The position numbers and the translations under genes were made by a program. From Minisyncoccota bacterium (GTDB taxonomy: Bacteria > Patescibacteriota > Minisyncoccia > Phycocordibacterales > UBA5272), in the NCBI GenBank assembly GCA_041651055.1, contig JBAZJW010000001.1, positions 373,325 through 437,324 of the forward strand: a DNA stretch of 64,000 bases. Reading direction: 5' to 3'. The notes below the pieces were generated by a model. The model was not told the origin of the DNA. It searched no databases and saw only the letters and a list, made by a program, of their open reading frames with translations. This document shows positions 2,574-56,633 of this stretch, piece by piece. Position 1 is the first letter of the stretch, and every line of letters starts with the position of its first letter.

Positions 2574-2586
2574 GTATCGTTATTCG

Positions 2587-2952
2587 TTAGGACGTTCTTC
2601 GTTCTTCGTTAAATTTCTTAATAAATGCACTCAACATTTTCATAACATCTTCGAGTTTTAATGCAATCATATTAAAATCTTCATCAGCTATATACCCTAA
2701 TTTATGAGCCAACAAAAGTTGTGTTTCTACTTCTGCACCAGACCCATGTGAAATTTTTAAAAACTGAAGAAACTCCTTTTGCCCCCTTTTGCTTCCTTCA
2801 GAAATATTAGAGGGTATAGAAACTGCAGCCCTGCGAATCTGAGATGTTAAACCATATAATTCTTCTTTAGGAAAAGACTTAGTTGACTGATATATATCAA
2901 AACAAACATCAAAAGACTTTTTCCATACATCAAGATCTTTATACGAACTCAT
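2587..2952 (-). CDS. four-helix-bundle protein of the 23S rRNA intervening-sequence protein family
   Basis: 121 aa. DVWKKS...IPSNISEG...EFLQFLKISHGSGAEVETQLLLA matches the TIGR02436 / S23-ribosomal-like family. The gene is bracketed by inverted CGTTCTTCGTTAGG repeats, and its last 8 codons are encoded by the repeat. Confidence 0.7.
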   Translation of the reverse strand: MSSYKDLDVWKKSFDVCFDIYQSTKSFPKEELYGLTSQIRRAAVSIPSNISEGSKRGQKEFLQFLKISHGSGAEVETQLLLAHKLGYIADEDFNMIALKLEDVMKMLSAFIKKFNEERRTS

Positions 2953-3135
2953 GATAGCGTTAGTATATCCCCCTAACGAAGAACGACCTAACGAAGAACG
3001 GATTATCTACATTCCTCTAGTTCAAAAAATTGTTTTAGCTACGAGAAGCGACAATTTTTTGAAAGAAGGCGTACGCATAGTACGACGACTGCCAAAAATG
3101 CAGTCGCGACAAAGCAGATGAAGCAATTTTTTGAA

Positions 3136-6649: not shown

Positions 6650-6704
6650 AGATAGAAGCTCGAAGCTTAAGACTGGAAGCTGGAAGAGAAACACAACACA
6701 GAAA

Positions 6705-6738
6705 AAGCGGCGCCTACGGCGCCGCTCTTCCTTTTTAC
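6705..6738 (+). terminator. intrinsic terminator downstream of rpsA
   Basis: AGCGGCGCC-TACG-GCGCCGCT hairpin followed by CTTCCTTTTTAC. Flanked by inverted GGAAGCTGGAAG / CTTCCAGCTTCC arms. Confidence 0.6.
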
Positions 6739-6756
6739 TTCCAGCTTCCCTCTTCC

Positions 6757-6846
6757 AGCTGTTAGCTGTTAGCTGTTAGCTGTTAGCTGTTAGCTGTTAG
6801 CTGTTAGCTGTTAGCTGTTAGCTGTTAGCTGTTAGCTGTTAGCTGT
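6757..6846. repeat. tandem 9-mer repeat (AGCTGTTAG), ~10 copies
   Basis: Direct reading. It overlaps the last 5 codons and the stop codon of pth. Confidence 0.95.
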
Positions 6847-7376
6847 CCATTATATCTCTCCATCGCTTTCTGATATCCATCACTCGCGATAGTTTGCAGT
6901 GCACCTAATACACGAGAAGCAATTTCACGAAGTGATGTCTCCTCATCATCCCTAATCTTTCCCATGACATAATCCTGCACATCAGAACCTGATGGTGCGA
7001 GCACGACTTTACCATCGACATCATGTGGAGCAATACCGATACGAATACGAATAAAATCTTTTTTACCAAGAGACTCAATAATGTTTTTTACACCATTATG
7101 TCCACCATCTCCTCTATCAAATGAAATTCTAAATGTTCCAAACGCTAGATCTTTGTCATCATAAATAACAACAAGCTCGCGACCTTCGTGATAGCGTAAG
7201 TATTCACTCACCGCTTTGCCGCTTTCATTCATAAATGTTTCTGGTACGAATATTTCGTAGTCACTCATATGAGCAATGTCGCTTTCTATAGTCGCAAGCA
7301 TCACACGCGCAGCATTGTGACGTGTGCGCGCATACTTTTCACCAGGGTTGCCGAGCGGAACGAGTGTATAAATCAT
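6825..7376 (-). CDS. pth: peptidyl-tRNA hydrolase
   Basis: MIYTLVPLGNPGEKYARTRHNAARVMLA...HNGVKNII matches the Pth family N-terminal and catalytic-His motifs. Confidence 0.85.
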   Translation of the reverse strand: MIYTLVPLGNPGEKYARTRHNAARVMLATIESDIAHMSDYEIFVPETFMNESGKAVSEYLRYHEGRELVVIYDDKDLAFGTFRISFDRGDGGHNGVKNIIESLGKKDFIRIRIGIAPHDVDGKVVLAPSGSDVQDYVMGKIRDDEETSLREIASRVLGALQTIASDGYQKAMERYNGQLTANS

Positions 7377-7471: not shown

Positions 7472-7500
7472 TAAAAACTAAAAACTGGAAACTAAAAACT
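7472..7500 (+). promoter_or_regulatory. A-rich AAAACT box, copy 1
   Basis: TAAAAACTAAAAACTGGAAACTAAAAACT. It sits 32 nt before a TATACT -10 (7533-7538) and the lepB ATG (7548). Confidence 0.5.
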
Positions 7501-12298: not shown

Positions 12299-12427
12299 GG
12301 CCCAGTTAGGGGTTAACCGTTAGGAGTTAGGGGTACACATAAAAGCCTTATTTTGTTTACTGTTTTCTTACTCCTAACCCCTAACCGCCAACCCCTAACG
12401 GGGTTGGCAACAACACAAATTTTTTCT

Positions 12428-13752: not shown

Positions 13753-13885
13753 AACAAATAAAATTACTTCATCTGCTTCGTTGCACAAGATTTTTGTTCC
13801 CGCGAAGTACTATTCGTACATCTTGGTCACAAAAATCTTGTGCGCCTTGCATCTAAAGCAATTTTCTTAGTTTTGGTAATTAAAA

Positions 13886-13914
13886 AACCGAGTCGTACGA
13901 CTCGGTTTTTTTAT
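13886..13914 (+). terminator. intrinsic terminator after ftsZ
   Basis: AACCGAGTCGTACGACTCGGTT perfect hairpin followed by TTTTTTTATT. Confidence 0.8.
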
Positions 13915-13989: not shown

Positions 13990-13998
13990 TGATATAAT
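13990..13998 (+). promoter_or_regulatory. extended -10 element TGATATAAT
   Basis: TGnTATAAT lying 8 nt upstream of ATG 14007, implying a leaderless or near-leaderless transcript. Confidence 0.5.
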
Positions 13999-14006
13999 TG
14001 ACTTCT

Positions 14007-14966
14007 ATGCCCACCACATCCACTCTCTCCTCTTCCCTCTCACCTCTTGCCTACGATTTAATAATCGTAGGAGGTGGTCCCGCTGGTACTGCTGCGGCCG
14101 TCTATGCTGCTCGTAAGCAATTACGCTCGCTTCTCATTGTAAAAGAATGGGGAGGTCAATCAACGGTCTCAGATGATATTCAAAACTGGATTGGCACACC
14201 ACACATTTCTGGTGCGAATCTCGCAGCATCATTCAAGTCTCATATCGATGAATACAGAGGTGATATTCTTTCTGTTGCTGAAGGTTCTGGTGTCACCGCT
14301 ATTACAGGCACAGACGGCGACTTCACCGTCACTCTAGAAAACGGAAACGAACACAAAGGAAAGACCGTGATCATTGCCACAGGATCATCTCGTAGGAAAT
14401 TAGACATACCTGGTGCAGATATTTTCGAAAACAAAGGCATCACCTATTGTGCTTCATGCGATGGGCCACTTTTTTCTGGCATGGATGTAGTTGTTGTTGG
14501 TGGAGGAAATGCAGGCTTTGAATCTGCAGCTCAACTTCTCGCTTACTGTAAATCCGTCACACTTCTTTCACGAAGTGAGCCTCGGGCAGACGCCATTACC
14601 GTTGCAAAATTAAAGCAGCGTGAAAACTTTACCCTCGTTACCAATGCCGTTCCCAAGAATGTGCAGGGTTCAGTCTTTGTAGAATCTATTACCTACACCA
14701 AGTCAGAAACAAACGAAGACGTCACACTCCCTGTAGCTGCTGTCTTTGTCGAAATAGGACAACTTCCAGCCACAGACTTCGCGAAAGCTATTGTGAATCG
14801 TGATGCGACGAATCACATCATCATCAATCCACGTACACAAGAAACCTCTACTGTTGGCATCTGGTCAGCCGGTGACTGTACGGACGTGCTCTATCATCAA
14901 AACAATATCGCAGCTGGAGATGCTGTGCGAGCCTTAGAAGATATCTACCTCCATATTCACGCCTAA
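14007..14966 (+). CDS. trxB: thioredoxin-disulfide reductase-like FAD/NAD(P)-dependent oxidoreductase
   Basis: YDLIIVGGGPAGTAAAVYAAR FAD-binding Rossmann fold, CASC redox-active disulfide, VVVVGGGNAGFESA NADPH site. The ORF track starts at TTG 13998. Confidence 0.7.
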   Translation: MPTTSTLSSSLSPLAYDLIIVGGGPAGTAAAVYAARKQLRSLLIVKEWGGQSTVSDDIQNWIGTPHISGANLAASFKSHIDEYRGDILSVAEGSGVTAITGTDGDFTVTLENGNEHKGKTVIIATGSSRRKLDIPGADIFENKGITYCASCDGPLFSGMDVVVVGGGNAGFESAAQLLAYCKSVTLLSRSEPRADAITVAKLKQRENFTLVTNAVPKNVQGSVFVESITYTKSETNEDVTLPVAAVFVEIGQLPATDFAKAIVNRDATNHIIINPRTQETSTVGIWSAGDCTDVLYHQNNIAAGDAVRALEDIYLHIHA

Positions 14967-15023
14967 GTCGTTAGTCGTTAGTCGTTAGTCGTTAGTCGTT
15001 AGTCGTTAGTCGTTAGTCGTTAG
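14967..15023. repeat. tandem 8-mer repeat (GTCGTTAG), ~7 copies
   Basis: Direct reading. It begins immediately after the trxB stop codon. Confidence 0.95.
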
Positions 15024-15100
15024 GTAAATTGTAATGCGGGATAATTTGCTTTGCAAATTATCCCGCATTACCTAACGAAGAACACCCTAACGTCCTAACT
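15021..15100 (+). repeat. 80-bp hairpin module, copy 1
   Basis: Perfect stem GTAATGCGGGATAATTTG-CTTTG-CAAATTATCCCGCATTAC, followed by CCTAACGAAGAAC-ACCCTAACGTCCTAACT. Confidence 0.9.
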
Positions 15101-15141
15101 GCAAAATGGTCAACGGCTGTCCATTTTGCTATGCTTGAAGG

Positions 15142-16884
15142 ATGCAAAAATATCTCTCTCTTATTGTTCGTCTCTGGAAAATGCTTAAACCTTTCCACAA
15201 AGACTTCTACTTACAGCTCTTCTCAACAATTATTCAACAAGGAATAACCGTATACGTTATTTACCTGACAGCAAAAGTTCTCGACAATCTCATTCATAAA
15301 AATTTTGAGGTAGCTCTTACTTTAGTGGGTATTACCACTACAATTTCTCTTGCGAAAGTCATCATTGCTTACTTCACCGAAATACATGCCCAGAACAATC
15401 TAGACTTTGCAATACAACAACACCTTCAAGAATATTCATTTAAGAAAATATTCAAATTAAACATTTCTCAATACACAGAAGATCACTCAGCAGTTAAACA
15501 GCAAGTTATAGACCGCGGTGAAGCAGCGATAGACACTATCATCTCTACGCTCATACTAAACCTTCTCCCGACAATAACCCAAGTGCTCTTTGCTATTATT
15601 GCTATTTCATTTTACTCAAAAATAGTTGGTATATGGACCTTTACCTCGCTTCTTATTGTGGTTTTGTGGAGTAACTACTTTGCGAAATATCATAGACCAT
15701 TCATAAAACAAGATATTGAAAATGGTGACAGACAAAAGAGAGTGCGAACAGAATCATTCCAACATCTAAGCCTCATTCGAACCCTTGGTGCCGAAGACTT
15801 CTATCTTGAAAAGTACCTCAACAGTAGACAAAAGGTTATGGACTACAAAAAGTTTGTGTGGAACATTGCCATAAAACATGGCCACAGAAGGTATGGATTC
15901 TTCACGGCATCCAGATCCTTTAGCACCGTCATTATTATTTACTTGGCATACATGGGGACAATAACCGTCGGATCAATCTACGCTGTTTGGGCGTATATCA
16001 GCGAAGCCAATAGTCAGATATTTAGTATTATTCAAGCAATACGACAAATGCCGCTTCGCTTTAGTGAGCTCGAAAAGTACCTAGACATTGTCGACAAAGA
16101 AGCTCTCTTTGACGAGCACGGAAAGAAAACAAAACTTGTTGGTGATATTGTTTTAAACAAGCTCACCTTCAAGTATCCACAGGGAAATATCGAGCTCTTC
16201 AATAATCTTTCTCTCACCATCCCCTACGGTAAAAAAGTTGCTTTCGTAGGTTCATCTGGTTCTGGAAAGTCCACCATTGTTAAATTGCTTCTTCGTATAT
16301 ATACCTACGATGAAGGCTCTATCACTATCGGTGGAGTGGAACTAAAAAACATAGAGGGTAAATATCTTCGAGAGAGTATTGGGTATGTTGAGCAGCACGT
16401 AGATCTCTTCGATGAAACCATACGAGAAAATATTTTAGTCGGTATAAAAAATAAAGACAAAAAAAGTGCAGAGAGAAGGTTGGGTGAAGTTGCAGAACAA
16501 TCTCGCATTTCTGAATTCTACCATCGCCTCGGTAAAGAAAAGTTCGACACGTACATCGGTGAACGTGGTGTGAAATTATCAGGTGGCGAACGTCAGCGTA
16601 TCGGTATCGCACGCGCAATTATCAAGAATCCAGACATCCTCATCTTCGACGAAGCAACGGCATCACTGGACGCAGAGAATGAAGCAAAGGTAATGGAAGC
16701 TATCAACGACGTCTCTCATGGAAAAACATCCATCATTATTGCCCATAGACTCTCTACCGTACGAGATGCTGATAAAATCATCGTCATGGATAAAGGGCAC
16801 GTTGTTGGTGAAGGAACTCACGATGAGTTGATGCAATCGTGTGACATATACCAAAATCTCGTCGCACACCAGTTATCAAGTTAA
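15142..16884 (+). CDS. ABC transporter, fused permease/ATP-binding protein (exporter type)
   Basis: Six N-terminal TM helices, then Walker A GSSGSGKST, ABC signature LSGGERQRIGIARA and Walker B ILIFDEATASLD. Confidence 0.8.
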   Translation: MQKYLSLIVRLWKMLKPFHKDFYLQLFSTIIQQGITVYVIYLTAKVLDNLIHKNFEVALTLVGITTTISLAKVIIAYFTEIHAQNNLDFAIQQHLQEYSFKKIFKLNISQYTEDHSAVKQQVIDRGEAAIDTIISTLILNLLPTITQVLFAIIAISFYSKIVGIWTFTSLLIVVLWSNYFAKYHRPFIKQDIENGDRQKRVRTESFQHLSLIRTLGAEDFYLEKYLNSRQKVMDYKKFVWNIAIKHGHRRYGFFTASRSFSTVIIIYLAYMGTITVGSIYAVWAYISEANSQIFSIIQAIRQMPLRFSELEKYLDIVDKEALFDEHGKKTKLVGDIVLNKLTFKYPQGNIELFNNLSLTIPYGKKVAFVGSSGSGKSTIVKLLLRIYTYDEGSITIGGVELKNIEGKYLRESIGYVEQHVDLFDETIRENILVGIKNKDKKSAERRLGEVAEQSRISEFYHRLGKEKFDTYIGERGVKLSGGERQRIGIARAIIKNPDILIFDEATASLDAENEAKVMEAINDVSHGKTSIIIAHRLSTVRDADKIIVMDKGHVVGEGTHDELMQSCDIYQNLVAHQLSS

Positions 16885-16888
16885 ATGT

Positions 16889-16976
16889 TAGTCGTTAGGT
16901 AAACTGTAATGCGGGATAATTTGCTTTGCAAATTATCCCGCATTACCTAACGAAGAACGCCCTAACGTCCTAACTT
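16889..16976 (+). repeat. 80-bp hairpin module, copy 2
   Basis: Near-identical to 15021-15100 and in the same orientation, so the two copies flank the ABC gene as direct repeats. Confidence 0.9.
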
Positions 16977-17306
16977 CCCCTTCGGTAACTTCGCAACCGT
17001 TAGCGCCACATCCAACCATACCTCTCTCTTTGTTCTGTCTTCGTATATTTCTGATGGTACAAGGAAATAATATAAATGCGCATCTTTCCCTTCCTTTGTG
17101 TAGGTAAACTGTTTACTTCCTCGATCTAGATACCATGATGCCAATTCTTTTGATCCCTTGAAATACACTTCGTCGTTTTCGACGAGAGCAAAGGCCTTCC
17201 CTTCATAGTACAAAATATGCGCGCCCATCATGGCGCGAAAGGTAATCGGTTCAGATTCACCGAATATGTCATATACGATATATTCGAGAAAAGGTGTCGT
17301 CTTCAT
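16962..17306 (-). CDS. TfoX N-terminal domain-like protein
   Basis: RAMMGAHILYYEGKAFALVENDEVYFKG resembles the TfoX_N pattern (FGGYGLY.DG..FALI.D..LYLK). Confidence 0.4.
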   Translation of the reverse strand: MKTTPFLEYIVYDIFGESEPITFRAMMGAHILYYEGKAFALVENDEVYFKGSKELASWYLDRGSKQFTYTKEGKDAHLYYFLVPSEIYEDRTKREVWLDVALTVAKLPKGKLGR

Positions 17307-17386
17307 AACGACCAGTCTATAAAGTTAAAAGCAAAAAGTCCATAAAGGGATAAGGGCGGCCACTTCGTGGCCGCCCGTGTTCTCTT

Positions 17387-17413
17387 AAAACTAAAAACTG
17401 GAAACTAAAAACT
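17387..17413 (+). promoter_or_regulatory. A-rich AAAACT box, copy 2
   Basis: AAAACTAAAAACTGGAAACTAAAAACT, 23 nt upstream of TGCTATACT (17437-17445), which lies 7 nt before ATG 17453. Confidence 0.5.
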
Positions 17414-18770: not shown

Positions 18771-18798
18771 AAAAACTAAAAACTGGAAACTAAAAACT
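18771..18798 (+). promoter_or_regulatory. A-rich AAAACT box, copy 3
   Basis: Same 27-mer. It lies 39 nt upstream of TGATATACT (18838-18846), which is 6 nt before ATG 18853. Confidence 0.5.
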
Positions 18799-20367: not shown

Positions 20368-20446
20368 GAGATAGCTTAGAGTCAACAGTTTATAGTTGAT
20401 AGAAAATACAATTACAAGGTGAGGTCTTGTATTAAAAAAGACAGAA

Positions 20447-20512
20447 CTGTCATAGACGGGATTAGAACTCAGGTGGGTGGAAAATAATTTACCTCACCTC
20501 TATTTACATAGT
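20447..20512. repeat. 65-bp dispersed repeat, copy A
   Basis: CTGTCATAGACGGGATTAGAACTCAGGTGGGTGGAAAATAATTTACCTCACCTCTATTTACAT is about 80% identical to 25391-25455. Confidence 0.8.
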
Positions 20513-20516
20513 AGCT

Positions 20517-21056
20517 TTATATTAATTTTAATAATAAAGGAAATTCTTTATAGGGTTGGTTATATGTAGTAGACCCCATATGTCCTTCACCTTTGAGTAC
20601 TATCAGTTCGCCTCCAAGTTTTTCTTTCATAATCTTTCCTTGTACATCATCACAACCCCAAGGGTCATTGTCTGAATTTATGAAAATAAATTCTTCGGAA
20701 CGTTGTTTAATCTTCCCCCAATCAAGTTCTGGTTTATTTTCTGAAGTTGTACTTTCTCTTAGAGACTCTGCATACCCAGAAACCAAAATAGCTTTTTTAA
20801 TTTTAATCTCAAGATTTTCAAGGATGCTTAAAATTAATTGTGAACCAGCTGAGTGCCCGATAATAATAGTTTCTTCATTAAATTTTTCTTGCCCCAAGAC
20901 GAAAGGAATCCATTCTTGTAAATTGGGAATATCTTCATTTGGAAGCTGGGGGAGCCAAACTTCGTAACCTTTTTCTTCTAACTTTTCTTTTATGTAAGGA
21001 AACCAAAAATCTGTATTTTTTGTTCCTGTCCCATGAAGTATGGTAGCGTTTTTCAT
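20517..21056 (-). CDS. alpha/beta serine hydrolase of the RBBP9/YdeN-like family
   Basis: GHSAG nucleophile elbow; ~180 aa in the size and pattern of PF06821. Confidence 0.55.
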   Translation of the reverse strand: MKNATILHGTGTKNTDFWFPYIKEKLEEKGYEVWLPQLPNEDIPNLQEWIPFVLGQEKFNEETIIIGHSAGSQLILSILENLEIKIKKAILVSGYAESLRESTTSENKPELDWGKIKQRSEEFIFINSDNDPWGCDDVQGKIMKEKLGGELIVLKGEGHMGSTTYNQPYKEFPLLLKLI

Positions 21057-21544: not shown

Positions 21545-21565
21545 AGGAACAGTATAGAAGAAATA

Positions 21566-21594
21566 CTTTTTAGTTTCCAGTTTTTAGTTTTCAG
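21566..21594 (-). promoter_or_regulatory. A-rich AAAACT box, copy 4 (minus orientation)
   Basis: Reverse complement of the 27-mer. On the minus strand it is followed after 10 nt by TATACT, then 5 nt, then the NUDIX ATG. A partial extra copy lies at 21631-21647. Confidence 0.5.
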
Positions 21595-23118: not shown

Positions 23119-23202
23119 GCATCTTCGCGCAATTACACGTCTCGTGTCCTTCGTCTGGTGACTACGGACATCTTCGGTGCTCTTCGCACCTCGAGCTAAC
23201 CG
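23119..23202. repeat. 84-bp exact repeat, copy 1 (partner at 53875-53958)
   Basis: CATCTTCGCGCAATTACACGTCTCGTGTCCTTCGTCTGGTGACTACGGACATCTTCGGTGCTCTTCGCACCTCGAGCTAACCGC is identical at both loci. It ends in a tRNA 5'-end fragment (GCGGTTAGCTCGAG on the minus strand). Confidence 0.95.
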
Positions 23203-23341
23203 CCCCTCCATCATCTCTAACTGTCCTAATACACTAAACTATACCATACAAAAGGAGAGGTCCAAAAGTTGAAAGAAACGACTTTTTGTGGTAGTATATT
23301 TTTTACTTGGCCACCATCTTTTCTGATATGGACAAGAAGAC

Positions 23342-25367: not shown

Positions 25368-25390
25368 AAAACTTACGAAAGATGTGTGTA

Positions 25391-25455
25391 CTGTCGTAGA
25401 CGGGATCAGAACTCAGATGATGAGGAAATAATTTACCCTACTCTTGTTTACATTG
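25391..25455. repeat. 65-bp dispersed repeat, copy B
   Basis: CTGTCGTAGACGGGATCAGAACTCAGATGATGAGGAAATAATTTACCCTACTCTTGTTTACAT. Confidence 0.8.
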
Positions 25456-26011
25456 TATCTTTAATAAATACTTTCATCATCAATATAAATAAAATATGGA
25501 GTATTACTGGCACGACTAAGCTTGTGGTGATATAAAAACTTAGTCCTAAAAAAATACCAGCCAAAAAAGTCATAGCGACTAATTTCCAATTCCAATTTCT
25601 TAGACTGAGACCTTTAGCTCCATTCAGGATGTGGGCAACTCCAAAAATTAGTGAAGATATGACTATGATGGAAATAGTGCTTTGAAAAAACAAGGACAAG
25701 TGTGTCTGGATAATACCCCTAAAAAGAATTTCCTCTGGAACTGCAATCAGTAAACTTGCATACAAAATAATTATAGGTAACCTAGATAAGTTTCTTTTAT
25801 TAAAACCAACTGTTCCAAACTTCAAAAGATAGTTGGCAACAAAGAATACAATTAGTGACACAGCCAACAAAAGAAACAGTACGATTAAGTCCTTAGCATT
25901 AAAAGCAAAGAGTGTTCGTGGTAATTCAGTAAAAAAGAAAAAATATATACAGAAAAGTAAATAGAAAGAAACTATGATTGCATGGTATTTGGACTTAAGT
26001 AGAGCCTTCAT
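25448..26011 (-). CDS. CPBP-family intramembrane glutamic endopeptidase (CAAX protease / Abi)
   Basis: VPEEILFRG...FGVAHILNG, motifs 1 and 3 of the CPBP family; several TM helices. Confidence 0.65.
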   Translation of the reverse strand: MKALLKSKYHAIIVSFYLLFCIYFFFFTELPRTLFAFNAKDLIVLFLLLAVSLIVFFVANYLLKFGTVGFNKRNLSRLPIIILYASLLIAVPEEILFRGIIQTHLSLFFQSTISIIVISSLIFGVAHILNGAKGLSLRNWNWKLVAMTFLAGIFLGLSFYITTSLVVPVILHILFILMMKVFIKDTM

Positions 26012-29174: not shown

Positions 29175-29204
29175 AGTTTTTAGTTTCCAGTTTTTAGTTT
29201 TTAG
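29175..29204 (-). promoter_or_regulatory. A-rich AAAACT box, copy 5 (minus orientation, no downstream -10 found)
   Basis: Reverse complement of the 27-mer, directly after the tsaD stop and facing back into tsaD. No TATACT follows on the minus strand. Confidence 0.4.
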
Positions 29205-29270: not shown

Positions 29271-29742
29271 TATGATACAGAGACGAAAGAAAAGCGATAT
29301 CTTACGATATCGCTTTTCTTCTGCCTCGCACCCAATTGTGGTGAGCGTGGCATGCTCCAAAGATAAATGCCTTATGTGAGCGCGGTCGCCCACCGCAATT
29401 GCTTGCGAGGGGGTTCCACAGGATCCAGTTTACAATTTTTAGTTTCAAGTTACAAGTAAGCTAGTCCATAAAGTCCTTAAGGTTTGTAAAGTCTACAAAG
29501 TAATACAAATACTTTAAGCGCCATTTCAGGTCTAAAATTGTACCGAATACGAGGCGGTGAATATTTTTTCGACTAAGACGTACAAGAGTACGTTGCATGG
29601 AGAAAAAAATATTCACCAACAAAGTAGGCGGTATGATTTTAGACCTGAAACGTAAATGGCCATCTTTCGATGACCATTTGCGCAGGCATTCATTTATCTT
29701 GTAAGCACACCGTTTACGCGGCTCACGTATATGAGTGTACTA

Positions 29743-31962: not shown

Positions 31963-32069
31963 ACGTAATAACTATTTTTAATAAAGATTACCTTTTAGTG
32001 TAACATATATAGCTCGTTGCAAGCAGTACGTAAAAGACCAAAAAGAGCCTGTAATGGTATACTGAAACC

Positions 32070-32111
32070 TAGCAAGGCGAGGCCTTGTAGCTACAAGGCC
32101 TCGCCTTGCTA
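32070..32111. promoter_or_regulatory. 42-bp perfect palindrome in a divergent intergenic region
   Basis: CTAGCAAGGCGAGGCCTTGTAG|CTACAAGGCCTCGCCTTGCTAG, ending 11 nt upstream of the GT32 ATG. Confidence 0.5.
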
Positions 32112-32121
32112 GACTACCATC

Positions 32122-32820
32122 ATGATTCCCAAAATAATCCATTACTGTTGGTTTGGTGACAATCCTAAAAATGAGGAGATTCTTGACTGTATCGAAAGTT
32201 GGAAAAAAACCTGCCCAGATTTTGAAATAAAAGAATGGAACGAACTCAACTTCCCTCTTGAGCAATTTCCTTTCGCTAGCCGCATGTACAATGAAAAAAA
32301 ATGGGCCTTCGTTGTGGACTACGTACGTCTCGATATTCTGTATCGTGAAGGCGGCTTCTACCTTGATACCGATATGTTACTCTTGCAGTCTCTCTCACCC
32401 CTCACTGAGCACACCTGCGCGCTCGGTGAAGAATCTGTCGGAGTGATCAGTGCAGGAATGATAGGGGCAGAAGCAAAGAACCCTTTTATTGCTGCGTGTA
32501 AGAAATTTTATGATGAAGATCCGAAAGGTCTCGTCACTATTCCCCGCGTACTTTCAACGGTATACGAAACATACACCGACAAAGAATCTCTCACTGTCTA
32601 TCCACCGAAAACATTTTATCCATTTAACAGCGAGCACATCAAAGAATTTCATGGGCAAAAACTCGGACCAGATGTTGTCGGTGTACATTTATGGCACTAC
32701 TCATGGGGAAGCCCACTGAATAAGTTTTTCAAAAAAATTGGCATCTATAGTTTTGGTAAAAGAGTCACAGAAATTCTTGGTATTAAACCTTTGCTTAAAA
32801 AGCTCTTCGGTTTTATCTAA
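32122..32820 (+). CDS. glycosyltransferase, GT32-like (DXD sugar-binding region)
   Basis: IPKIIHYCWFG...W.....P.FE..EW N-terminal signature of PF04488; LDTDM DXD motif. Confidence 0.65.
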   Translation: MIPKIIHYCWFGDNPKNEEILDCIESWKKTCPDFEIKEWNELNFPLEQFPFASRMYNEKKWAFVVDYVRLDILYREGGFYLDTDMLLLQSLSPLTEHTCALGEESVGVISAGMIGAEAKNPFIAACKKFYDEDPKGLVTIPRVLSTVYETYTDKESLTVYPPKTFYPFNSEHIKEFHGQKLGPDVVGVHLWHYSWGSPLNKFFKKIGIYSFGKRVTEILGIKPLLKKLFGFI

Positions 32821-32825
32821 TACCC

Positions 32826-33596
32826 ATGCGATTCTCCATCATCACCCCCACCTACAAACGTGCAGATCTTTTGACTCGTGCAGTCGAGTCTCTTCTTCGT
32901 CAAACCTACACTGATTGGGAAATGATTATTGTGAACGACTCCCCTACTGATATGTCGTACACAGCGTTTGCTTCATCTATTAATGACGCCCGCATTCATT
33001 ATCACGTCAATGAAATAAATAGCGGTGTGAACTTCAGTCGCAATCGCGCGCTTGATAATATCACCATAGACTCTGATTGGATTATTTTCTTAGACGATGA
33101 TGACTACCTCGCACCAGACGCACTAGAAACATTCTATGATCTCATTCTTTCAAAACAAGAAGCAAAGTGGCTCGTGACCAACCGTGCAAAAAAAGATGGC
33201 ACACCGCTTACACTCTTCCCTAAAGACGATAACTGGTACTCATACGCATGGCAGTACCTCATTCTCAAACGCTGTAAAGGCGATGCAACACACTGCATCG
33301 ACACCAAGACGGTCAATGCCATCAGATTCTCAAAGCATGTAAAACAGGCTGAGGAATGGTTCTTTTTCTATCAACTCGGACTCCACCAGAAGTTTTTCTA
33401 CCATTCACACAACAGTACCATCACTGATGGTTATGATGCGAAGGCCGGCCTCAATTTCCGCAAGCGCACTCGTGGCGAACAGTTCGAAACACTTTCCATT
33501 CTCGGCTACGAAGGCCTCGCTCTTGGCATTCTCTACCATCCATCCTTCCTCGTCTACCTCACCCTTCGTCTTATTCGTATTGCATTAAAGCCGTAA
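32826..33596 (+). CDS. glycosyltransferase family 2
   Basis: FSIITPTYKRADLLTRAVESLLRQTY...DDDD. Confidence 0.7.
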   Translation: MRFSIITPTYKRADLLTRAVESLLRQTYTDWEMIIVNDSPTDMSYTAFASSINDARIHYHVNEINSGVNFSRNRALDNITIDSDWIIFLDDDDYLAPDALETFYDLILSKQEAKWLVTNRAKKDGTPLTLFPKDDNWYSYAWQYLILKRCKGDATHCIDTKTVNAIRFSKHVKQAEEWFFFYQLGLHQKFFYHSHNSTITDGYDAKAGLNFRKRTRGEQFETLSILGYEGLALGILYHPSFLVYLTLRLIRIALKP

Positions 33597-33705
33597 ATAA
33601 TTACGGAAGTTGCGCCTCTACAAGGAAACCACAGATCTCCTAAAACTCTATTTCTGAAAAGAAATAAGCTATACTCTTCTAGAATAATAAACAACATAAC
33701 GCACC

Positions 33706-34530
33706 ATGAACCAAGAGCCTCTCAAAGTTAGAATCAAGCTTCTTTTAAAGAAAATATTGCCTGTAATTATTTTTAGTTTAATTCTAAAAATATGGCGATC
33801 TACACTTTCAAAGATATCTAGTTCTGGTGATACGAAAATTGTTGAAACATATACAAAAGAATTTTTAGCAATTCATGGATACAGTGTTGTTGGTGGGCCA
33901 TTTAAAGGTATGAAATACATACATGAAGCTGCTGGCAGTGGATATCTCATAAAACTCATCGGGGTCTACGAAGAAGTGCTTCACCCAATAATTAATTTGG
34001 CTGTATCTAGGGAATACACTACGATGATCGACATAGGGTGTGCTGAGGGGTATTACTTAGTCGGTATTGGAATGAAAAGCAAAAAGACAAAACTGGTAGG
34101 GTATGATATAGACAAGAAAGCCTTAGATCTTACAAAAGAACTCTATACTCTTAACAGGCTTACAAACGAACTCCTTCTTCTAGAAGACTGTACTCCCAAG
34201 GACTTAAACAGTCGCATCGACGATAAGACGTTTTTGATATGTGATGCGGAGGGTTTTGAAGAAGAGATACTCAACCCTACGAGTTCCCCTGCCCTTCTTG
34301 AGGTTCAAACACTACTCATCGAGCTTCATGAATTCGTTGTCCCTAATGTTAAAAAGGTACTCATACATCGTTTTGAGAAAACCCACAGCATTGAAACCGT
34401 TGTATTTAAAAATGGCAACCCTAATAATTATCCATTTCTAAAAAAGATTACCAATAAAACAGACCTCTATACCCTCCTCCGTGAACGAGGTGAGCAAGAA
34501 CAAGAGTGGCTAATCTTAGAAAAGAGATAA
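33706..34530 (+). CDS. class I SAM-dependent methyltransferase
   Basis: MIDIGCAEGYYLVGIG (motif I) ... VGYDID (motif II). Confidence 0.5.
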   Translation: MNQEPLKVRIKLLLKKILPVIIFSLILKIWRSTLSKISSSGDTKIVETYTKEFLAIHGYSVVGGPFKGMKYIHEAAGSGYLIKLIGVYEEVLHPIINLAVSREYTTMIDIGCAEGYYLVGIGMKSKKTKLVGYDIDKKALDLTKELYTLNRLTNELLLLEDCTPKDLNSRIDDKTFLICDAEGFEEEILNPTSSPALLEVQTLLIELHEFVVPNVKKVLIHRFEKTHSIETVVFKNGNPNNYPFLKKITNKTDLYTLLRERGEQEQEWLILEKR

Positions 34531-34620
34531 TTCTGAATATACTAAAAGTTGTGTTAAAATTAAGACCACATTAGTGAAATAAAGACAATTTTGTACTCCC
34601 TTGCCTAAACAAAAACTACT

Positions 34621-35421
34621 ATGAAAAACAATCTCGTCATCGGTTCTGATGGTTTTATTGGAAAGCCTTTTTGTGATTTTTTAGAAAAAAAAGGTGAAGC
34701 AGTAACTCGTTTTGATATAAAGCGTGGAGCAGAAGAAGATGCTCGAATATCCATATTACCCCTTGAAGACATTGACTGTGTTTATTTTCTTGCGTGGGAT
34801 GTTGGTGGTGCAAAATATTTATACAAAGAAGATGCCCAGCTCGGTCAATTAGACTGGAATCTGAAACTTCTTTCCAACGTAATGACACAACTAGAAAAGA
34901 GTAAAAAACCTTTTCTTTTTATCTCGAGTCAACTTGCAGAAGAGCATGATACGGTTTATGGTGTAACAAAAAGATTAGGTGAAGTTTGGACCAGAATTAT
35001 TGGTGGCACGTTCATTAGGCAGTGGAATGTATACGGGCCAATGGAAGAAGAAAGTCTTCGAAGTCACGTGGTTGCCGATTTTGTCCACCAAGCATTAACT
35101 ACAAAAGAAATAAAAATGATGACGACAGGTGAAGAAAAGAGGCAGTTTATATATATTGACGATGTTTGTGAGGCTTGGTACAAAGCCCTAAATGAAAAGC
35201 ATAAAGGAATACATGATGTCACAAGTTTTGAGTGGGTAAAAATTATAGATATTGCAAATATTATAGGCAAGTTAACAGGTGCAAAAGTAATACCAGGAGA
35301 AAAAGTTGGATCCACGCCAATAACACCGATAAAAGGCAAGATTCCGGGATGGTCCCCTAAGGTAGAACTAGAGGAGGGTCTGAGGAGAACTATTGAGTTA
35401 TACAAAAAAATAAATGAATAA
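34621..35421 (+). CDS. NAD-dependent epimerase/dehydratase (SDR)
   Basis: LVIGSDGFIG Rossmann motif; YGVTK catalytic YxxxK. Confidence 0.7.
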   Translation: MKNNLVIGSDGFIGKPFCDFLEKKGEAVTRFDIKRGAEEDARISILPLEDIDCVYFLAWDVGGAKYLYKEDAQLGQLDWNLKLLSNVMTQLEKSKKPFLFISSQLAEEHDTVYGVTKRLGEVWTRIIGGTFIRQWNVYGPMEEESLRSHVVADFVHQALTTKEIKMMTTGEEKRQFIYIDDVCEAWYKALNEKHKGIHDVTSFEWVKIIDIANIIGKLTGAKVIPGEKVGSTPITPIKGKIPGWSPKVELEEGLRRTIELYKKINE

Positions 35422-36223
35422 AGTAATATCAATTATCACTCCAACTTTTAACAGTGAGAAGGCTCTCGAAAAATGTCTTCTCAGTGTTAAAAAACAGACA
35501 TACCAAAACATTGAACATATTGTTGTGGATGGTCTTTCGACAGATGGCACTGTGGAAATTTTAAAAAGATATGAAGGCACCTATAATTTAAAATGGATAT
35601 CAGAAAAAGACTCTGGAGTTGCCGATGCGATGAACAAAGGTTTTAACCTTGCGACCGGGGAAGTTTTTACATGGATTGATTCTGACAACTATTACTTAGA
35701 GGGTACTTTTATCGCAGAAGTGATGGCGGCTTACAACAATGACCAAGACGTTAACATGGTCTTAACAAACTGCCTATCTCAGTATGAAACCTCTGAAAAA
35801 AGAACTCTTGTAAATCCACAAAAAGTAACGTATGCCAAACTCTTAGCGGAAGGCAGTATGTTTACCCCAGAGTGTGTTTATTTTAGCAAAGATCTATTTT
35901 TTAATGCTGGAGGATTTAACCTTAAGAACAAGCTTCTTGCGGACTATGAGTTATGGCTAAACATATTCAAACAGAACCCGAAGTACGTAAAGTTACCAAT
36001 ACTTTCTACGGTGTATGTTTCAAATGAAGATTCATTACTTCACAGAAAACCCATTCTTGCCTACAAAGAAATGCTTAGAATAGGAAAAGAATATCACAGA
36101 GAAAGATTGCCTCAGATAATAATCTGGATAAACTACTATATATTTTTAACAAAATACCCATTTCTAAAATTTATCAAACGCCACAAGATTTTAAAAGATT
36201 TTTTTGTAAAGTATTTCCGGTAA
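35414..36223 (+). CDS. glycosyltransferase family 2
   Basis: ISIITPTFNSEKALEKCLLSVKKQTY...VVDGLSTDGT. Confidence 0.7.
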   Translation: MNKVISIITPTFNSEKALEKCLLSVKKQTYQNIEHIVVDGLSTDGTVEILKRYEGTYNLKWISEKDSGVADAMNKGFNLATGEVFTWIDSDNYYLEGTFIAEVMAAYNNDQDVNMVLTNCLSQYETSEKRTLVNPQKVTYAKLLAEGSMFTPECVYFSKDLFFNAGGFNLKNKLLADYELWLNIFKQNPKYVKLPILSTVYVSNEDSLLHRKPILAYKEMLRIGKEYHRERLPQIIIWINYYIFLTKYPFLKFIKRHKILKDFFVKYFR

Positions 36224-36334
36224 AAGCAGAAAAACTATTAAAGAGAAGTTTTTTGGGTACTGATTAAGGTTGACATTAATCAGAATACATGCCATAGTTT
36301 TATTCGTAAGTTCAATAAAGAAAGGAGAGCAACT

Positions 36335-36820
36335 ATGTGCTTCAAGGGCTTGGTTACAGGTAGACTTCCTCGCGAGGTATATATCTCAGGTCTCGAAAAT
36401 TTCATCATCTCCACAGTCGACTTCGTTCTCAGAAGAGGTCTCCAGTTCTTTCTGATTAAACGAAAAGGTGGGGCTTTCTCTGGCGAATGGTTCGTCGCTG
36501 GCGGCCGCCAAAACCGTGGAGAGGAAGAATTGACGGCTCTCCACCGCATCGCCAAGCGTGAGCTTGGTGTAAACGAAAAAGATGTCGTCACCGTCAGATT
36601 CTCTCATTGCCAGGATGTATGTAATCCTGCCAGCAAAAATGATGAAGGATCTCTTCCTGAATGGCATTCGAAGTGGCACTTCTACGTGGTCGAAGTGACC
36701 CCTGATTTCAAGCTGAAGCTTGATGAAACCTCTAGCGAGGGGCAATGGTTCACAGAACTTCCAGTCGAAGGGGTCCCGGAGCCCGTCATTCGCGCTCTAA
36801 GAAAATCAGGAATGATTTAA
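36335..36820 (+). CDS. gmm: GDP-mannose mannosyl hydrolase-like Nudix enzyme
   Basis: VDFVLRRG.LQFFLIKRKGGAFSGEWFVAGGR...EELTALHRIAKRELG aligns with E. coli Gmm/WcaH (LDFIVEN..GEFLLGKR...GYWFVPGGR...ETLEAAFERLTMAELG). ~52% GC. Confidence 0.55.
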   Translation: MCFKGLVTGRLPREVYISGLENFIISTVDFVLRRGLQFFLIKRKGGAFSGEWFVAGGRQNRGEEELTALHRIAKRELGVNEKDVVTVRFSHCQDVCNPASKNDEGSLPEWHSKWHFYVVEVTPDFKLKLDETSSEGQWFTELPVEGVPEPVIRALRKSGMI

Positions 36821-36850
36821 CAGGAACAAGGTCCACCTCAGTGGACCTTT

Positions 36851-37642
36851 TTATATAAGATACTGAATTGATTTTCCTGTAAAGATAACTTCTACCGCCA
36901 TGCCTGGATCTATACCCTGATACCCTTTTTTCGTATATTCAAAAATCAAATACTTACCGACGGGACCCATTGCCACAAGCAAGACCACATCCTTTACTAT
37001 TGCGTGTTCTAATTCCCTGTCTAGCTGTTTAGTGATTTCATCATACGAAGCAATAGCGTCAGATTCTGGTGTTTCTATGTAGACAATATTCTTCCACGGA
37101 AGGCTGCCATTACTTTTCAAGCGCTCAGTTGTTTCTCGTCTCGTTATACAAATAATTTTCTTATCTTGTATAACAGGGGCAATTACGTTCTCAAAATACG
37201 TATCATAATAAAAGTTATGGGCATCCATGTAACCTATTTTCTTAGGAAACATAAGAAAGAACATTACCTTAAGAGGTAACCACACGTTGAACTTTCCAAT
37301 CTTTTTTAATTCCTCATTTGAAAAATTAATAAACTGTGGGACAGATAATACATAGTTACTTTCTTGTTTGTACGATGTAACTATTTCCTTGATCATCGTC
37401 TTCAATCTCGGATTAAATGTATGATAGTGATTGTTTAAATCTAGTAGTAGGTTTATTTCCCCATCACCAAGACGGATAATAGATTTACCCTCCTGTGCTA
37501 ATTTAATAATTTCTTCTTTTGTATAAAAATGTTCACTGAAAGAAAAGCCCTTTAGAAAATACGTACACACATACACAATCACATAGAGGGGGTGTTTAAA
37601 TACATACCTTGATAAGAAATTAAAAATTCTTGTAACTGACAT
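36851..37642 (-). CDS. GT-D type glycosyltransferase (DUF1792)
   Basis: SIIRLGDGE matches the DUF1792 hallmark S.IR.GDGE. Confidence 0.55.
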   Translation of the reverse strand: MSVTRIFNFLSRYVFKHPLYVIVYVCTYFLKGFSFSEHFYTKEEIIKLAQEGKSIIRLGDGEINLLLDLNNHYHTFNPRLKTMIKEIVTSYKQESNYVLSVPQFINFSNEELKKIGKFNVWLPLKVMFFLMFPKKIGYMDAHNFYYDTYFENVIAPVIQDKKIICITRRETTERLKSNGSLPWKNIVYIETPESDAIASYDEITKQLDRELEHAIVKDVVLLVAMGPVGKYLIFEYTKKGYQGIDPGMAVEVIFTGKSIQYLI

Positions 37643-37652
37643 GGCGGAAGAC

Positions 37653-39416: not shown

Positions 39417-39494
39417 AATTATTCAATTATACCATACGCATGTTGGTCTGTATGAATTAAAGGTTTGAACAAAACCACACAGAGAAGCAGCCTT

Positions 39495-40286
39495 TTACCT
39501 TACAACTTTTGCCCAATCTTCCTCTGATTTTCCCGTACCCGTCTCAAAATCAACAGTGTTCTGTTTAACAATAAGAGGCACATACCCGTACAAATTAAAG
39601 TTAGTCTTAAATCGCGCCACGTTCGGTACCTGATCTGCCGTAAGACGAAGTGGTTGTGTAAATGGAAGAAGTTTCTTTGCTCCTTCAAGGGTCAAAATAT
39701 ACGCTCCAGCGTTGTACAATGGACGATAAAATCTTTTTCCAGAAGCATACCAGCTTATTTTCCTAGCAAAAAAGCTCCTGACTTCTTCGAAAATGGAAAG
39801 CGCAATTATGTACGGCGCTTTTATTATTGCATACAAAAAGAATAATGGTTTCTTTTGTATTGTTATGATAGTCGCAATAAACCAGTGATACAAAAAAGTA
39901 ATTCCGTCATAGCGATAATCAAACGACAGCCAATCCCATTTTTTATTCTTAGTATTAATTTCTTTTTCTATGATCAAAATAAAATCCGCGGGTAGCATAA
40001 TATCATCTTCCAGAATAACAGCGTATGGAATTTTTTCTTGTACAATTCTCTCATACACTAACGCATGAGCCACTGCACACCCCTTCTCACCAAAGTAGAG
40101 GGGTTTACCATGCTCCTCTATAGCACGCACAGCGTCATACCTTTCCACAACACGTGCGTCATCTCCATAAATACCATCAACAAATTCGTACTTCGCACCA
40201 AGTGCTTGTAGCTGCTTTTCGACAGCTTCTTTTTTCTTTACATCTATCGGCAAGTTGATGACAAAAATGGGAAATGATTGAATCAT
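39495..40286 (-). CDS. glycosyltransferase family 25 (LPS-type)
   Basis: FPIFVINLPIDVKKKEAVEKQL...YEFVDG matches the GT25 N-terminal pattern. Confidence 0.65.
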   Translation of the reverse strand: MIQSFPIFVINLPIDVKKKEAVEKQLQALGAKYEFVDGIYGDDARVVERYDAVRAIEEHGKPLYFGEKGCAVAHALVYERIVQEKIPYAVILEDDIMLPADFILIIEKEINTKNKKWDWLSFDYRYDGITFLYHWFIATIITIQKKPLFFLYAIIKAPYIIALSIFEEVRSFFARKISWYASGKRFYRPLYNAGAYILTLEGAKKLLPFTQPLRLTADQVPNVARFKTNFNLYGYVPLIVKQNTVDFETGTGKSEEDWAKVVR

Positions 40287-40292
40287 ATATCT

Positions 40293-41579: not shown

Positions 41580-41617
41580 TTAGACTTGAATAAGGACTAT
41601 CTTTACAAATACCCTTC

Positions 41618-42430: not shown

Positions 42431-42469
42431 ATTTTATGATTTATAGACATGAACTCATACGTTCATATG

Positions 42470-43480: not shown

Positions 43481-43626
43481 AATTAACCAACAGTATAAAA
43501 CAATAATTCATTTATCGCTATTATCGTCACATTTCTTTTCATTATTATATTAATACGAAAGTAGTTTTACCCATTCATAACATTATGGCATTAGTCTAAT
43601 TGAATATATGGTAAAATTAAAGCACA

Positions 43627-50334: not shown

Positions 50335-50364
50335 AGTTTTTAGTTTCCAGTTTTTAGTTTTCAG
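50335..50364 (-). promoter_or_regulatory. A-rich AAAACT box, copy 6 (minus orientation)
   Basis: Reverse complement of the 27-mer, 5 nt upstream of TATACT, which lies 10 nt before ATG 50311. Confidence 0.5.
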
Positions 50365-50559
50365 AGAATGCGAAAAGCGAAATCGGCAGATTTCGCTTTT
50401 AGTTTCCGCATTTCCTAACGAAGAACGACCAACGATTAACGAGTAACGAGAGCCTTCTATAATAGTCAGGAATATTCAATAACTTAATATCTAATATTCA
50501 AATCAAATGCATTGCATTTCTTTGAATATTGGTTATTAAAACATTGAATATTGTTGTTA

Positions 50560-53874: not shown

Positions 53875-53958
53875 CATCTTCGCGCAATTACACGTCTCGT
53901 GTCCTTCGTCTGGTGACTACGGACATCTTCGGTGCTCTTCGCACCTCGAGCTAACCGC
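53875..53958. repeat. 84-bp exact repeat, copy 2 (partner at 23119-23202)
   Basis: Identical sequence, in the same relative position upstream of a minus-strand tRNA. Confidence 0.95.

Positions 53959-54799: not shown

Positions 54800-56633
<1,834 letters not shown>

Follow-up and report, generated by a model that had tools for sequence, protein, structure and literature searches.

What are two nearly identical palindromic hairpins doing on either side of a single ATP-binding cassette (ABC) exporter gene in a Minisyncoccota bacterium? The pair lies in a 64-kb window (the whole stretch analysed, 64,000 nucleotides of contig JBAZJW010000001.1), and coordinates given below are positions in this window. 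The two modules are recent copies of one element. One copy stands where relatives of this organism carry the terminator of trxB, and the other has rewritten the end of the adjacent tfoX gene. Both have an arm sequence in common with another unit of the window that carries a 23S_rRNA_IVP gene. With confidence that falls a little short of even, we favour the view that the modules are a recently duplicated palindromic element without an open reading frame (ORF), similar to rRNA intervening sequences (IVSs) and to miniature inverted-repeat transposable elements (MITEs), that it is a relative of the IVP unit, and that it acts as a hairpin at transcript boundaries.

Anatomy of the twin modules

The features of the locus are as follows.

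13998-14966, plus strand: trxB-like thioredoxin reductase gene (Pfam Pyr_redox_2, 1.3e-38)
14966-15023, plus strand: perfect tandem heptamer (TCGTTAG)x8.3, the left arm of module copy 1 (Tandem Repeats Finder (TRF), period 7, 100% match, score 116)
15012-15100, plus strand: module copy 1, the stretch in common with copy 2 (alignment, 87/89 identical by blast; fold)
15031-15071: core perfect palindrome of copy 1, a 19-bp stem (8 G-C pairs) with a TTT loop
15101-15135, plus strand: second small hairpin, GCAAAATGG...CCATTTTGC, then a −10-like TATGCT close 5ˊ of the ABC start (fold; alignment with relatives)
15142-16884, plus strand: ABC exporter gene, 1743 nt, fused permease and ATPase (Pfam ABC_tran, ABC_membrane)
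16887-16976, plus strand: module copy 2, between the convergent ABC and tfoX genes (alignment)
16906-16946: core perfect palindrome of copy 2
16962-17306, minus strand: TfoX_N-domain gene (Pfam TfoX_N, 6.3e-20; protein and DNA alignments with relatives)

A first-pass annotation, made from the sequence alone, had placed two modules in the same orientation directly 5ˊ and 3ˊ of the ABC gene, and this arrangement is borne out. It was also right that the copies are near-identical, although they extend over 89-90 nt with two mismatches (97.8% identity) rather than over about 80 bp at about 95%. As direct repeats of 89 nt they are separated by 1875 nt. The core of each module is a 41-nt palindrome that forms a perfect stem (GTAATGCGGGATAATTTGC / GCAAATTATCCCGCATTAC) closed by a TTT loop, and the stem is 19 bp long rather than the 18 bp first described. 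The 18-mer stem arm has four strand matches in 64 kb compared to 0.08 expected, all of them at the two modules.

Structurally, copy 1 consists of GTTAGTCGTTAGG, a 6-nt bulge, the 19-bp palindrome and CCTAACGAAGAACACCCTAACGTCCTAACT. The flanks TCGTTAGG / CCTAACGA also pair, GTTAG/CTAAC sequences form further helices outside them, and the module fold includes an extra arm helix of 8-10 bp beyond an asymmetric bulge of 6-7 nt. These inverted flanks make each module a single compound palindrome that folds as one long hairpin, and not the hairpin with a separate tail that had been described. The core folds with −29.5 kcal/mol (z −9.1 relative to shuffled sequences), and the whole modules with −48.7 and −64.7 kcal/mol (z −8.7 and −10.1). 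The stem lies 64 nt past the trxB stop codon in copy 1 and 21 nt past the ABC stop codon in copy 2. The tandem repeat reported upstream is real, although it is not the octamer (GTCGTTAG)x7 but the heptamer TCGTTAG, and copy 2 retains two heptamer units (GTTAG TCGTTAG).

The modules sit at gene ends in a conserved locus

Loci compared with the window are labelled L###. Four of these (L010, L030, L032 and L033) are the ENA contig, from a second assembly of the genome to which the window belongs, and this is 100% identical to the window over an overlap of ~37 kb with the exception of one 28-nt indel in a heptamer array. Both module copies are carried by the two independent assemblies, and an assembly artefact was therefore rejected. 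The identity of the ABC protein to that of the window is 90% in L002-L005, 83% in L006 and 80% in L008/L009.

The ABC protein, which has 580 amino acids in the window ORF and 567 in the ENA annotation because the start codon is called differently, has more than 100 orthologues at 54-90% identity in metagenome bins of the Paceibacterota/Parcubacteria type. According to Pfam annotation, the gene order ybeY-ftsA-ftsZ-trxB-ABC-tfoX(−)-Nramp-murA(HTH, helix-turn-helix) is the same in L002-L006 and L008/L009, and none of these loci contains the module. The ABC gene is a conserved resident of this locus, a bystander rather than cargo.

This result bears directly on the proposal that the direct repeats are the ends of a mobile ABC cassette, or a substrate for deletion or duplication of the gene. 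Direct repeats of this length and spacing could recombine in principle, and the GTTAGGT and ACCTAAC sequences agree letter by letter with the integron R' and R'' consensus. The attC consensus has R'' (RYYYAAC) at its 5ˊ end and R' (GTTRRRY) at its 3ˊ end. In the modules, either strand reads GTTAGGT ... ACCTAAC, an order opposite to that of attC, and we rejected an integron site on these grounds. Moreover, comparison of orthologous loci, which had been recommended for detecting presence or absence of the ABC gene, finds it in place in relatives that lack the repeats, and neither of the two assemblies contains a deletion allele. There is also no integrase or transposase gene in the annotated parts of the window (44.6-50.5 kb is unannotated) or in ~7.8 kb beyond each end. 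The cassette explanation is largely refuted and by now scarcely credible.

The relatives show what the upstream copy has displaced. On the 3ˊ side of trxB, L002, L006, L008, L013 and L015 carry a canonical terminator with a GC-rich stem and a T-run, and relatives have a conserved ABC promoter region (ATAAAACAAGACTTACAAAAAATGTAAAGGTCTGCTAT) after it. In the window, the terminator and the upstream half of the promoter region are gone, and the heptamer array and the module are present instead. Homology to the ABC promoter region of the relatives resumes at ~15101.

The downstream copy lies in a spacer that is nearly absent in relatives. The ABC-tfoX spacer is 32 nt in L002 and 3 nt in L013, and the two genes overlap in L008, giving a range of 0-32 nt with the exception of a 517-nt spacer in L006. 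The last 15 nt of copy 2 lie within the tfoX ORF and supply its stop codon. As a result, the TfoX protein ends in ...LPKGKLGR* in the window compared to ...LPKEK* in relatives, with the last three codons (LGR) and the TAG stop encoded by CTAAC units in the right arm of copy 2, read on the opposite strand.

These positions are also those expected of ordinary terminator hairpins. In that case, they would be unrelated to IVSs or mobile elements, a spacer hairpin would have been copied next door by gene conversion or template switching, and the two copies would end the transcription of trxB, ABC and tfoX. The upstream copy is exactly at the terminator position of the relatives, the downstream copy occupies the classic place of a bidirectional terminator between convergent genes, and adjacency of copies is expected for a copying error that depends on distance. 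However, the stem is not followed by a T-run on either strand (CTAACGAAGAAC on plus, AATTTACCTAACGAC on minus), and the module is therefore no canonical intrinsic terminator. Elsewhere, the window has many terminators of the canonical kind, with a T-run (for example 13882-13911 and 17354-17376), and a terminator scan of the window does not report the module among them. A perfect, AT-rich stem of 19 bp is unusual for such an element, and the arm in common with the IVP unit and with an element at 50.4 kb (see below) would be left unexplained. The insulating terminators suggested by the first-pass annotation are thus plausible in position and not in canonical form, and we regard ordinary terminators as an unlikely but serious alternative.

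A young and local element

The search for further copies covered 79.5 kb, or ~10% of the genome, consisting of the window, L030 12574-20339 and L032 1-7778. The core is present only twice in this sequence, and the family tally is two core copies and one diverged copy. Searches of JGI metagenomes and viral contigs with the core pattern GCGGGATAATTTG N3-9 CAAATTATCCCGC gave no match. Among GTDB species genomes there is a single match, in a metagenome-assembled genome (MAG) of the Pyrinomonadaceae. This was rejected as a module, since it is a canonical terminator with another loop, a T-run and no arms, and it is judged to be due to chance because the hairpin fixes only 13 free bases. There was likewise no blastn match of the module to plasmids and phages, and none of (TCGTTAG)x4 to viral contigs. 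In Rfam (E<=10, 14900-17100), only generic hairpins below threshold were found, including traJ-II (25 bits compared to a threshold of 40) and miRNA models. A core that occurs twice in 79.5 kb and is absent from the databases searched indicates that the module is young and local and not a generic terminator used throughout the genome. The first-pass annotation had held that its interpretations would fall if the module followed most genes and the locus were syntenic; the locus is indeed syntenic, but two core copies in 79.5 kb do not make a family that follows genes in general.

This distribution constrains two further explanations. The modules might be a classical MITE acting at the DNA level, with a transposase supplied in trans from elsewhere in the genome. 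Their termini are imperfect inverted repeats of 13-14 nt, GTTAGTCGTTAGG and the reverse complement of CCTAACGTCCTAAC differing by one indel, and could serve as terminal inverted repeats. Presence varies between close relatives, and very short contigs are frequent among those with IVP homologues, as would be expected close to repeats. On the other hand, no target-site duplication is visible at either copy (the flanks are AAAT and TTCC at copy 2, and the array and TGCA at copy 1), the annotated parts of the window and its two extensions of ~7.8 kb hold no transposase, only two core copies are present in 79.5 kb, and the database searches returned nothing apart from the chance terminator. We consider a classical MITE quite improbable.

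Alternatively, the palindromes might bind a protein, either as an identical pair of operators that regulates the ABC gene by looping or as sequences of the DNA-uptake type beside tfoX. A 41-bp perfect palindrome does occur twice around one gene, a TfoX-family gene is adjacent, and a weak sigma-70-like match on the minus strand points out of copy 1. Such matches are at the level of chance, however (10 found compared to 8.4 expected), the palindromes are far longer than typical operators, and relatives regulate the ABC gene without one. DNA uptake sequences were rejected because the core is not dispersed through the rest of the 79.5 kb. Protein binding is therefore a very improbable function. 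Tandem interspaced guide RNA (TIGR) arrays were also considered and rejected, as there is no array or Tas-like gene here.

An arm shared by the modules and IVP units

A lead on the origin of the modules is a 13-mer that recurs at two other places in the window.

15071-15083, plus strand: 13-mer arm CCTAACGAAGAAC, the reverse complement of the 5ˊ arm of the IVP-gene unit
2577-3000, minus strand: sibling IVP unit, a 23S_rRNA_IVP gene between CGTT-heptamer arms
50366-50450, minus strand: taken as a third, diverged member, with the outer stem (AATGCG/CGCATT) and the CCTAACGAAGAACG arm of the modules (23/25 identical; fold)

There are five exact copies of CCTAACGAAGAAC in 64 kb, one in each module, two at 2972-2999 and one at 50414. 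When up to two mismatches are allowed, 13 matches are found compared to 1.4 expected. In the 50.4-kb element the similarity reaches the base of the stem (CCGCATTTCCTAACGAAGAACG, 23 of 25 nt identical), and its inner hairpin differs and is followed by a T-run.

The IVP gene (2587-2952, minus strand) encodes a four-helix-bundle protein of the 23S_rRNA_IVP family (PF05635, 1.3e-38). Its unit has a 5ˊ arm of two GTTCTTCGTTAGG sequences (2972-3000, plus strand) and a 3ˊ arm of AACGAAGAACGAAGAACGTCCTAACGAATAACGA (2577-2611), so that, read on its own strand, it consists of 2 x GTTCTTCGTTAGG, a TATACT box, the ORF and AACGAAGAACGAAGAACGTCCTAACGAATAACGA. The final residues and the stop codon of the ORF are encoded by the 3ˊ arm. 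The arms are predicted to form a 24-bp terminal stem in both the minimum free energy and the centroid structures.

Related units are found in other genomes. A sister species (L034-L043) has the unit at the same locus with the same 13-mer 5ˊ of the gene. In a genome whose IVP protein is 81% identical, the unit is at another locus, in the order UvrD-IVP-RsmA, where GTTCTTCGTTAGG and TATACT again lie upstream and the closing stem differs, being a perfect 15 bp (TAGTTAGGAAGTTAG / CTAACTTCCTAACTA). The 13-mer arm is thus upstream of IVP genes in three genomes. A fourth genome has an IVP unit in the UvrD/RsmA spacer, inverted relative to the flanking genes, with a 27-bp stem of GTTAGGATGTTAGG-type units (z −5.2). 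Finally, in the more distant relative L016 the heptamer arms around an IVP gene are AGTTTTx and xAAAACT, and their stem is ~26 bp long. A terminal stem around the IVP gene is therefore predicted in four of four independent cases (24, 15, ~26 and 27 bp), and in all four genomes the sequence of the closing stem has changed while its complementarity is kept. Each stem is composed of GTTAG/CTAAC heptamers that differ from one genome to the next. In the twin modules, a 41-nt palindrome takes the place that the ORF has between the arms of the IVP unit.

Two additional observations concern such units. In the related genomes L044 and L048 (~1450-1900 in each), the UvrD/RsmA spacer holds the IVP gene and its arms in opposite orientation relative to the flanks, as would be expected if the unit had either flipped between its inverted arms or been inserted independently. 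In the window, the ftsA-ftsZ spacer (12305-12400) contains inverted arms, GTTAGGGGTTAACCGTTAGGAGTTAGG ... CCTAACCCCTAACCGCCAACCCCTAAC, around a 40-nt AT-rich spacer. The close similarity of these arms to the 5ˊ arm of the L048 IVP unit suggests that this may be an 'empty' unit.

Heptamer arrays and the 7-nt periodicity of spacers

The trxB TAA stop codon (14964-14966) leads directly into the heptamer array that forms the left arm of copy 1. This array is polymorphic in copy number, with 8 units in the window and 4 in the ENA contig L010. Collapse of the array during assembly is an unlikely cause, since both arrays are shorter than the assembler k of 141. Presumably, (TCGTTAG)n represents one arm unit that was expanded by replication slippage and whose copy number is still changing. 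The array is tandem, intergenic, longer than chance and variable in copy number, as is characteristic of heptanucleotide simple sequence repeats (SSRs). Phase variation of the ABC gene through the array was considered and found unlikely, because the array is upstream of the hairpin and outside both the coding sequence and the promoter spacer.

Heptamers are a general feature of spacers in this group. Among the TRF rows of the window, 26 of 49 have period 7 and 4 of 49 have period 14; for the relatives (98.5 kb), the count at period 7, 14 or 21 is 24 of 69. In the window as in relatives, the autocorrelation of intergenic DNA has maxima at lags of 7, 14 and 21, whereas coding DNA exhibits period 3 only. 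The lag-7 value for intergenic DNA of the window is 0.316 compared to ~0.275 at neighbouring lags; it is 0.305 when the modules and the longest array are left out, and 0.322 in relatives. The top intergenic-enriched 5-mer is GTTAG/CTAAC (8.6-fold).

In relatives, arrays are found at matching spots (after the trxB stop codon, and before the trxB, ABC or Nramp start codons) with unrelated units, which indicates that heptamer arrays turn over quickly. At trxB stop codons or other gene ends of relatives, heptamer runs with different units are followed by a canonical terminator. Examples are as follows.

L016, 3837-3870: GTAATTx
L002, 2146-2200: xxxxTAG
L006, 11640-11685: (GTTAGAT)x6.6

In L006, a complementary TCTAAAx run lies across the hairpin from the GTTAGAT run.

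Heptanucleotides are the commonest class of long SSR in many bacteria, and polymerase slippage has been put forward as the reason (Mrazek 2007, cited in PMC4679880). Intergenic TAACTGA heptamers that contain stop codons occur in Beggiatoaceae, Cyanobacteria and Bacteroidetes, with function unknown (PMC4679880). Our literature search found no report of such heptanucleotide repeats for Paceibacterota or other candidate phyla radiation (CPR) bacteria.

These data raise the possibility that the modules have no function and are a neutral by-product of replication stalling at spacer hairpins, with slippage generating the arrays and template switching generating the copies and palindromes. The difference in array length between assemblies, the fast turnover at orthologous spots and the slippage invoked for heptanucleotide SSRs elsewhere are all consistent with such an origin. 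It would not account for the complementarity kept by the arms of four IVP units that differ in sequence, or for core stems that are both perfect over 19 bp. Furthermore, the canonical terminator is absent here, and something must therefore end the trxB transcript. We consider a purely neutral origin improbable.

A general function as an all-frame stop cassette was rejected because the effect is too weak to carry the explanation. Stop codons in all three frames within 30 nt past the gene are found for 11 of 79 genes, compared to 5.6 +/- 2.1 in shuffled sequences.

Several other arrays of the window were noted. The longest perfect one, (AGCTGTT)x12.9 at 6650-6846, extends into the peptidyl-tRNA hydrolase gene (6825-7376, minus strand) at the 3ˊ end of that gene, whose stop codon it provides, and the Logan contig L031 terminates within the array. 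Next to this array, a canonical terminator between convergent genes is framed by GAAGCTG / CTTCCAG heptamer arms that pair with each other (−60 kcal/mol, z −5.8). In addition, the 27-nt sequence AGTTTTTAGTTTCCAGTTTTTAGTTTT, which comprises four heptamer units, has six copies with none expected: 7474-7500(−), 17387-17413(−), 18772-18798(−), 21565-21591(+), 29175-29201(+) and 50335-50361(+). Five of them share the orientation of a gene whose start codon lies 20-55 nt farther downstream, with a TATACT-like box after the element, and these genes encode an S26 peptidase, Nramp, HTH-MurA, a NUDIX protein and a small ORF. This sequence looks like a promoter-associated element or the site of a shared regulator.

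A proposed IVS-like element at transcript boundaries

Of the explanations weighed above, the one we favour would place the modules in a local element family defined by arms of CGTT/GTTAG heptamers (TCGTTAG, GCGTTCT and their complements). The IVP unit would be similar to an rRNA IVS living outside rRNA, and the hairpin modules would be its miniature form. The module would thus be to the IVP unit what a MITE is to its parent element, or what the ORF-less IVS of the Salmonella type is to an ORF-bearing IVS. One copy would have taken over the place of the ancestral trxB terminator, and the other would have entered the near-empty spacer between the convergent ABC and tfoX genes, where the insertion would have removed the stop codon of tfoX and extended the gene by three codons up to a stop codon within the element. 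The route of copying may have been template switching between nearby hairpins or mobility of the element.

At the RNA level, the 19-bp stem and arm helices would form a long stem-loop at transcript boundaries. By analogy with known elements, it might substitute for a terminator without a U-tract, be processed by an enzyme of the RNase III type, or do both, leaving a hairpin that protects the 3ˊ end and works in both directions. The GTTAG/CTAAC units would also bring stop codons, TAG and TAA, in several reading frames of either strand. This kinship and this role in RNA are inferred from the arms, folds and positions described above.

A number of observations weigh against this view. The copies lack visible target-site duplications and a T-run, and the upstream copy is a replacement rather than a clean insertion. 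The two core copies are adjacent, and the dispersal that is the hallmark of a mobile family is not seen in 79.5 kb. Kinship with the IVP unit is a matter of a 13-25-nt arm and a shared architecture; because heptamer units are everywhere in the spacers, the arm may be shared 'syntax' or a product of slippage rather than a sign of common descent. No PF05635 protein is known to move DNA, and IVP is not a known transposase. The all-frame stop effect is weakly supported, and total stop density is not raised. Each functional step proposed for the module is drawn by analogy.

A broader hypothesis, which we consider rather unlikely, is that the Paceibacterota harbour a selfish family of IVS-like elements that has left rRNA genes and colonised the spacers between protein-coding genes, with forms that carry PF05635 genes and forms that lack an ORF. 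Both of the proposed forms, the IVP-bearing unit and the ORF-less twin hairpins, would have terminal inverted repeats of GTTAG/CTAAC heptamers in common. If this were true, such elements would replace terminators, rewrite gene ends with stop codons on both strands, provide stems of the RNase III type and invert in place. The 7-nt periodicity of spacers across the clade would then be the footprint of IVS-like elements, and the enigmatic PF05635 protein would gain a role at heptamer arms. Should the link through the arm extend genome-wide, it would bear on the origin and mobility of rRNA IVSs and on the dominance of heptanucleotides in bacterial spacers.

Even apart from this hypothesis, the locus is a compact case of spacer remodelling in a tiny CPR genome, where a terminator has been swapped, a stop codon re-supplied and the length of an array changed. 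Palindromic and heptamer elements break short-read assemblies and shift gene ends, and they therefore affect the annotation of MAGs.

Other repeats and features in the window

In the window there are three tRNA genes and a 16S rRNA gene that contains insertions, and no 23S gene. The 16S gene (54893-56640, minus strand) is 1748 nt long compared to a model of 1533 positions, and near its 5ˊ end a 75-nt insert replaces 18 model positions. It is not followed by a 23S gene in the window, only by tRNA-Ile ~1.2 kb away. An exact 84-nt direct repeat (23120-23203 and 53875-53958; 91 nt at 98%) lies upstream of tRNA-Val and of this tRNA-Ile downstream of the 16S gene, and probably serves stable-RNA genes as a common promoter or leader.

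The ends of two convergent gene pairs share a repeat of 74 nt with 78% identity (ACTGTCRTAGACGGGATYAGAACTCAG...AATAATTTACC...; 20446-20519 and 25390-25463), which is another small family of spacer elements. The motif AAATTGTTTTAGCTAC...(A/G)GGCGTAC...TAGTACG(A/T)CG occurs three times (3027-3135, 59398-59530 and ~29560-29640), once adjoining the IVP unit, and may represent either a structured RNA or what is left of another element. The region ~32000-45000 has a GC content of 0.33-0.39 compared to ~0.42 and carries glycosyltransferase, polysaccharide-synthesis, carbamoyltransferase and methyltransferase genes. Its low GC content, dense packing of glycan genes, short spacers and lack of heptamer elements suggest that it may be a horizontally acquired surface-glycan island.

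Comparison with known systems

The elements described here, both the IVS-like and MITE-like palindromes of spacers and the heptanucleotide SSRs, are of known kinds and are found here in a lineage for which they had not been described. Canonical intrinsic terminators resemble the modules in being stable stem-loops past a stop codon, and the modules occupy an orthologous terminator position and a spacer between convergent genes. They differ from terminators in the lack of a U-tract, in their AT-rich 19-bp stem with 8 G-C pairs, and in the extra arm helix beyond a bulge.

Correia elements of Neisseria are transcribed, are cut by RNase III, and can terminate or promote transcription. Repetitive extragenic palindromic (REP) sequences and bacterial interspersed mosaic elements (BIMEs) number in the hundreds, are imperfect palindromes of 20-40 nt, and are accompanied by a REP-associated tyrosine transposase (RAYT) gene of the Y1 type. 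Like these, the modules are short palindromic elements in spacers at gene ends that vary in their presence and can remodel ORF ends. Unlike them, the modules have a very low copy number (two and one diverged in 79.5 kb) and tandem-heptamer arms, with no TA or other target duplication visible and no RAYT or other transposase among the annotated genes. The absence of the core elsewhere in the 79.5 kb and of a Y1 transposase among the annotated genes sets them apart from REP/BIME elements in particular.

The arrays resemble the long SSRs described by Mrazek (2007), the TAACTGA repeats (PMC4679880) and the short tandemly repeated repetitive sequences of cyanobacteria in being perfect tandem 7-nt units in spacers. 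Here as there, the units contain stop codons and adjoin start or stop codons, and slippage is suspected. The known heptanucleotide SSRs differ from the arrays of this group, which have many different units and are often inverted arms around a hairpin or an IVP gene.

The closest systems are the IVSs of rRNA, including the ORF-bearing type of Coxiella and Leptospira (PF05635, 'S23p') and the ORF-less type of Salmonella. Inverted repeats at the borders of an IVS pair into a stem that RNase III cleaves, and mobility of these elements has been suggested; the terminal stem in Coxiella is 28 bp (PMC4990558). In the elements of this study, terminal inverted repeats are likewise predicted to close the element (15-27 bp in IVP units, 19 bp with arm helices in the modules), the PF05635 cargo is optional, and distribution between relatives is sporadic. 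In contrast to IVSs, they are located in mRNA spacers between protein genes rather than in helix 25 or 45 of 23S rRNA, and their arms are tandem heptamers with a GTTAG/CTAAC core. Cleavage by RNase III is documented for IVSs, and by analogy an enzyme of this type may act on the long stems proposed to form at the boundaries of trxB, ABC and tfoX transcripts.

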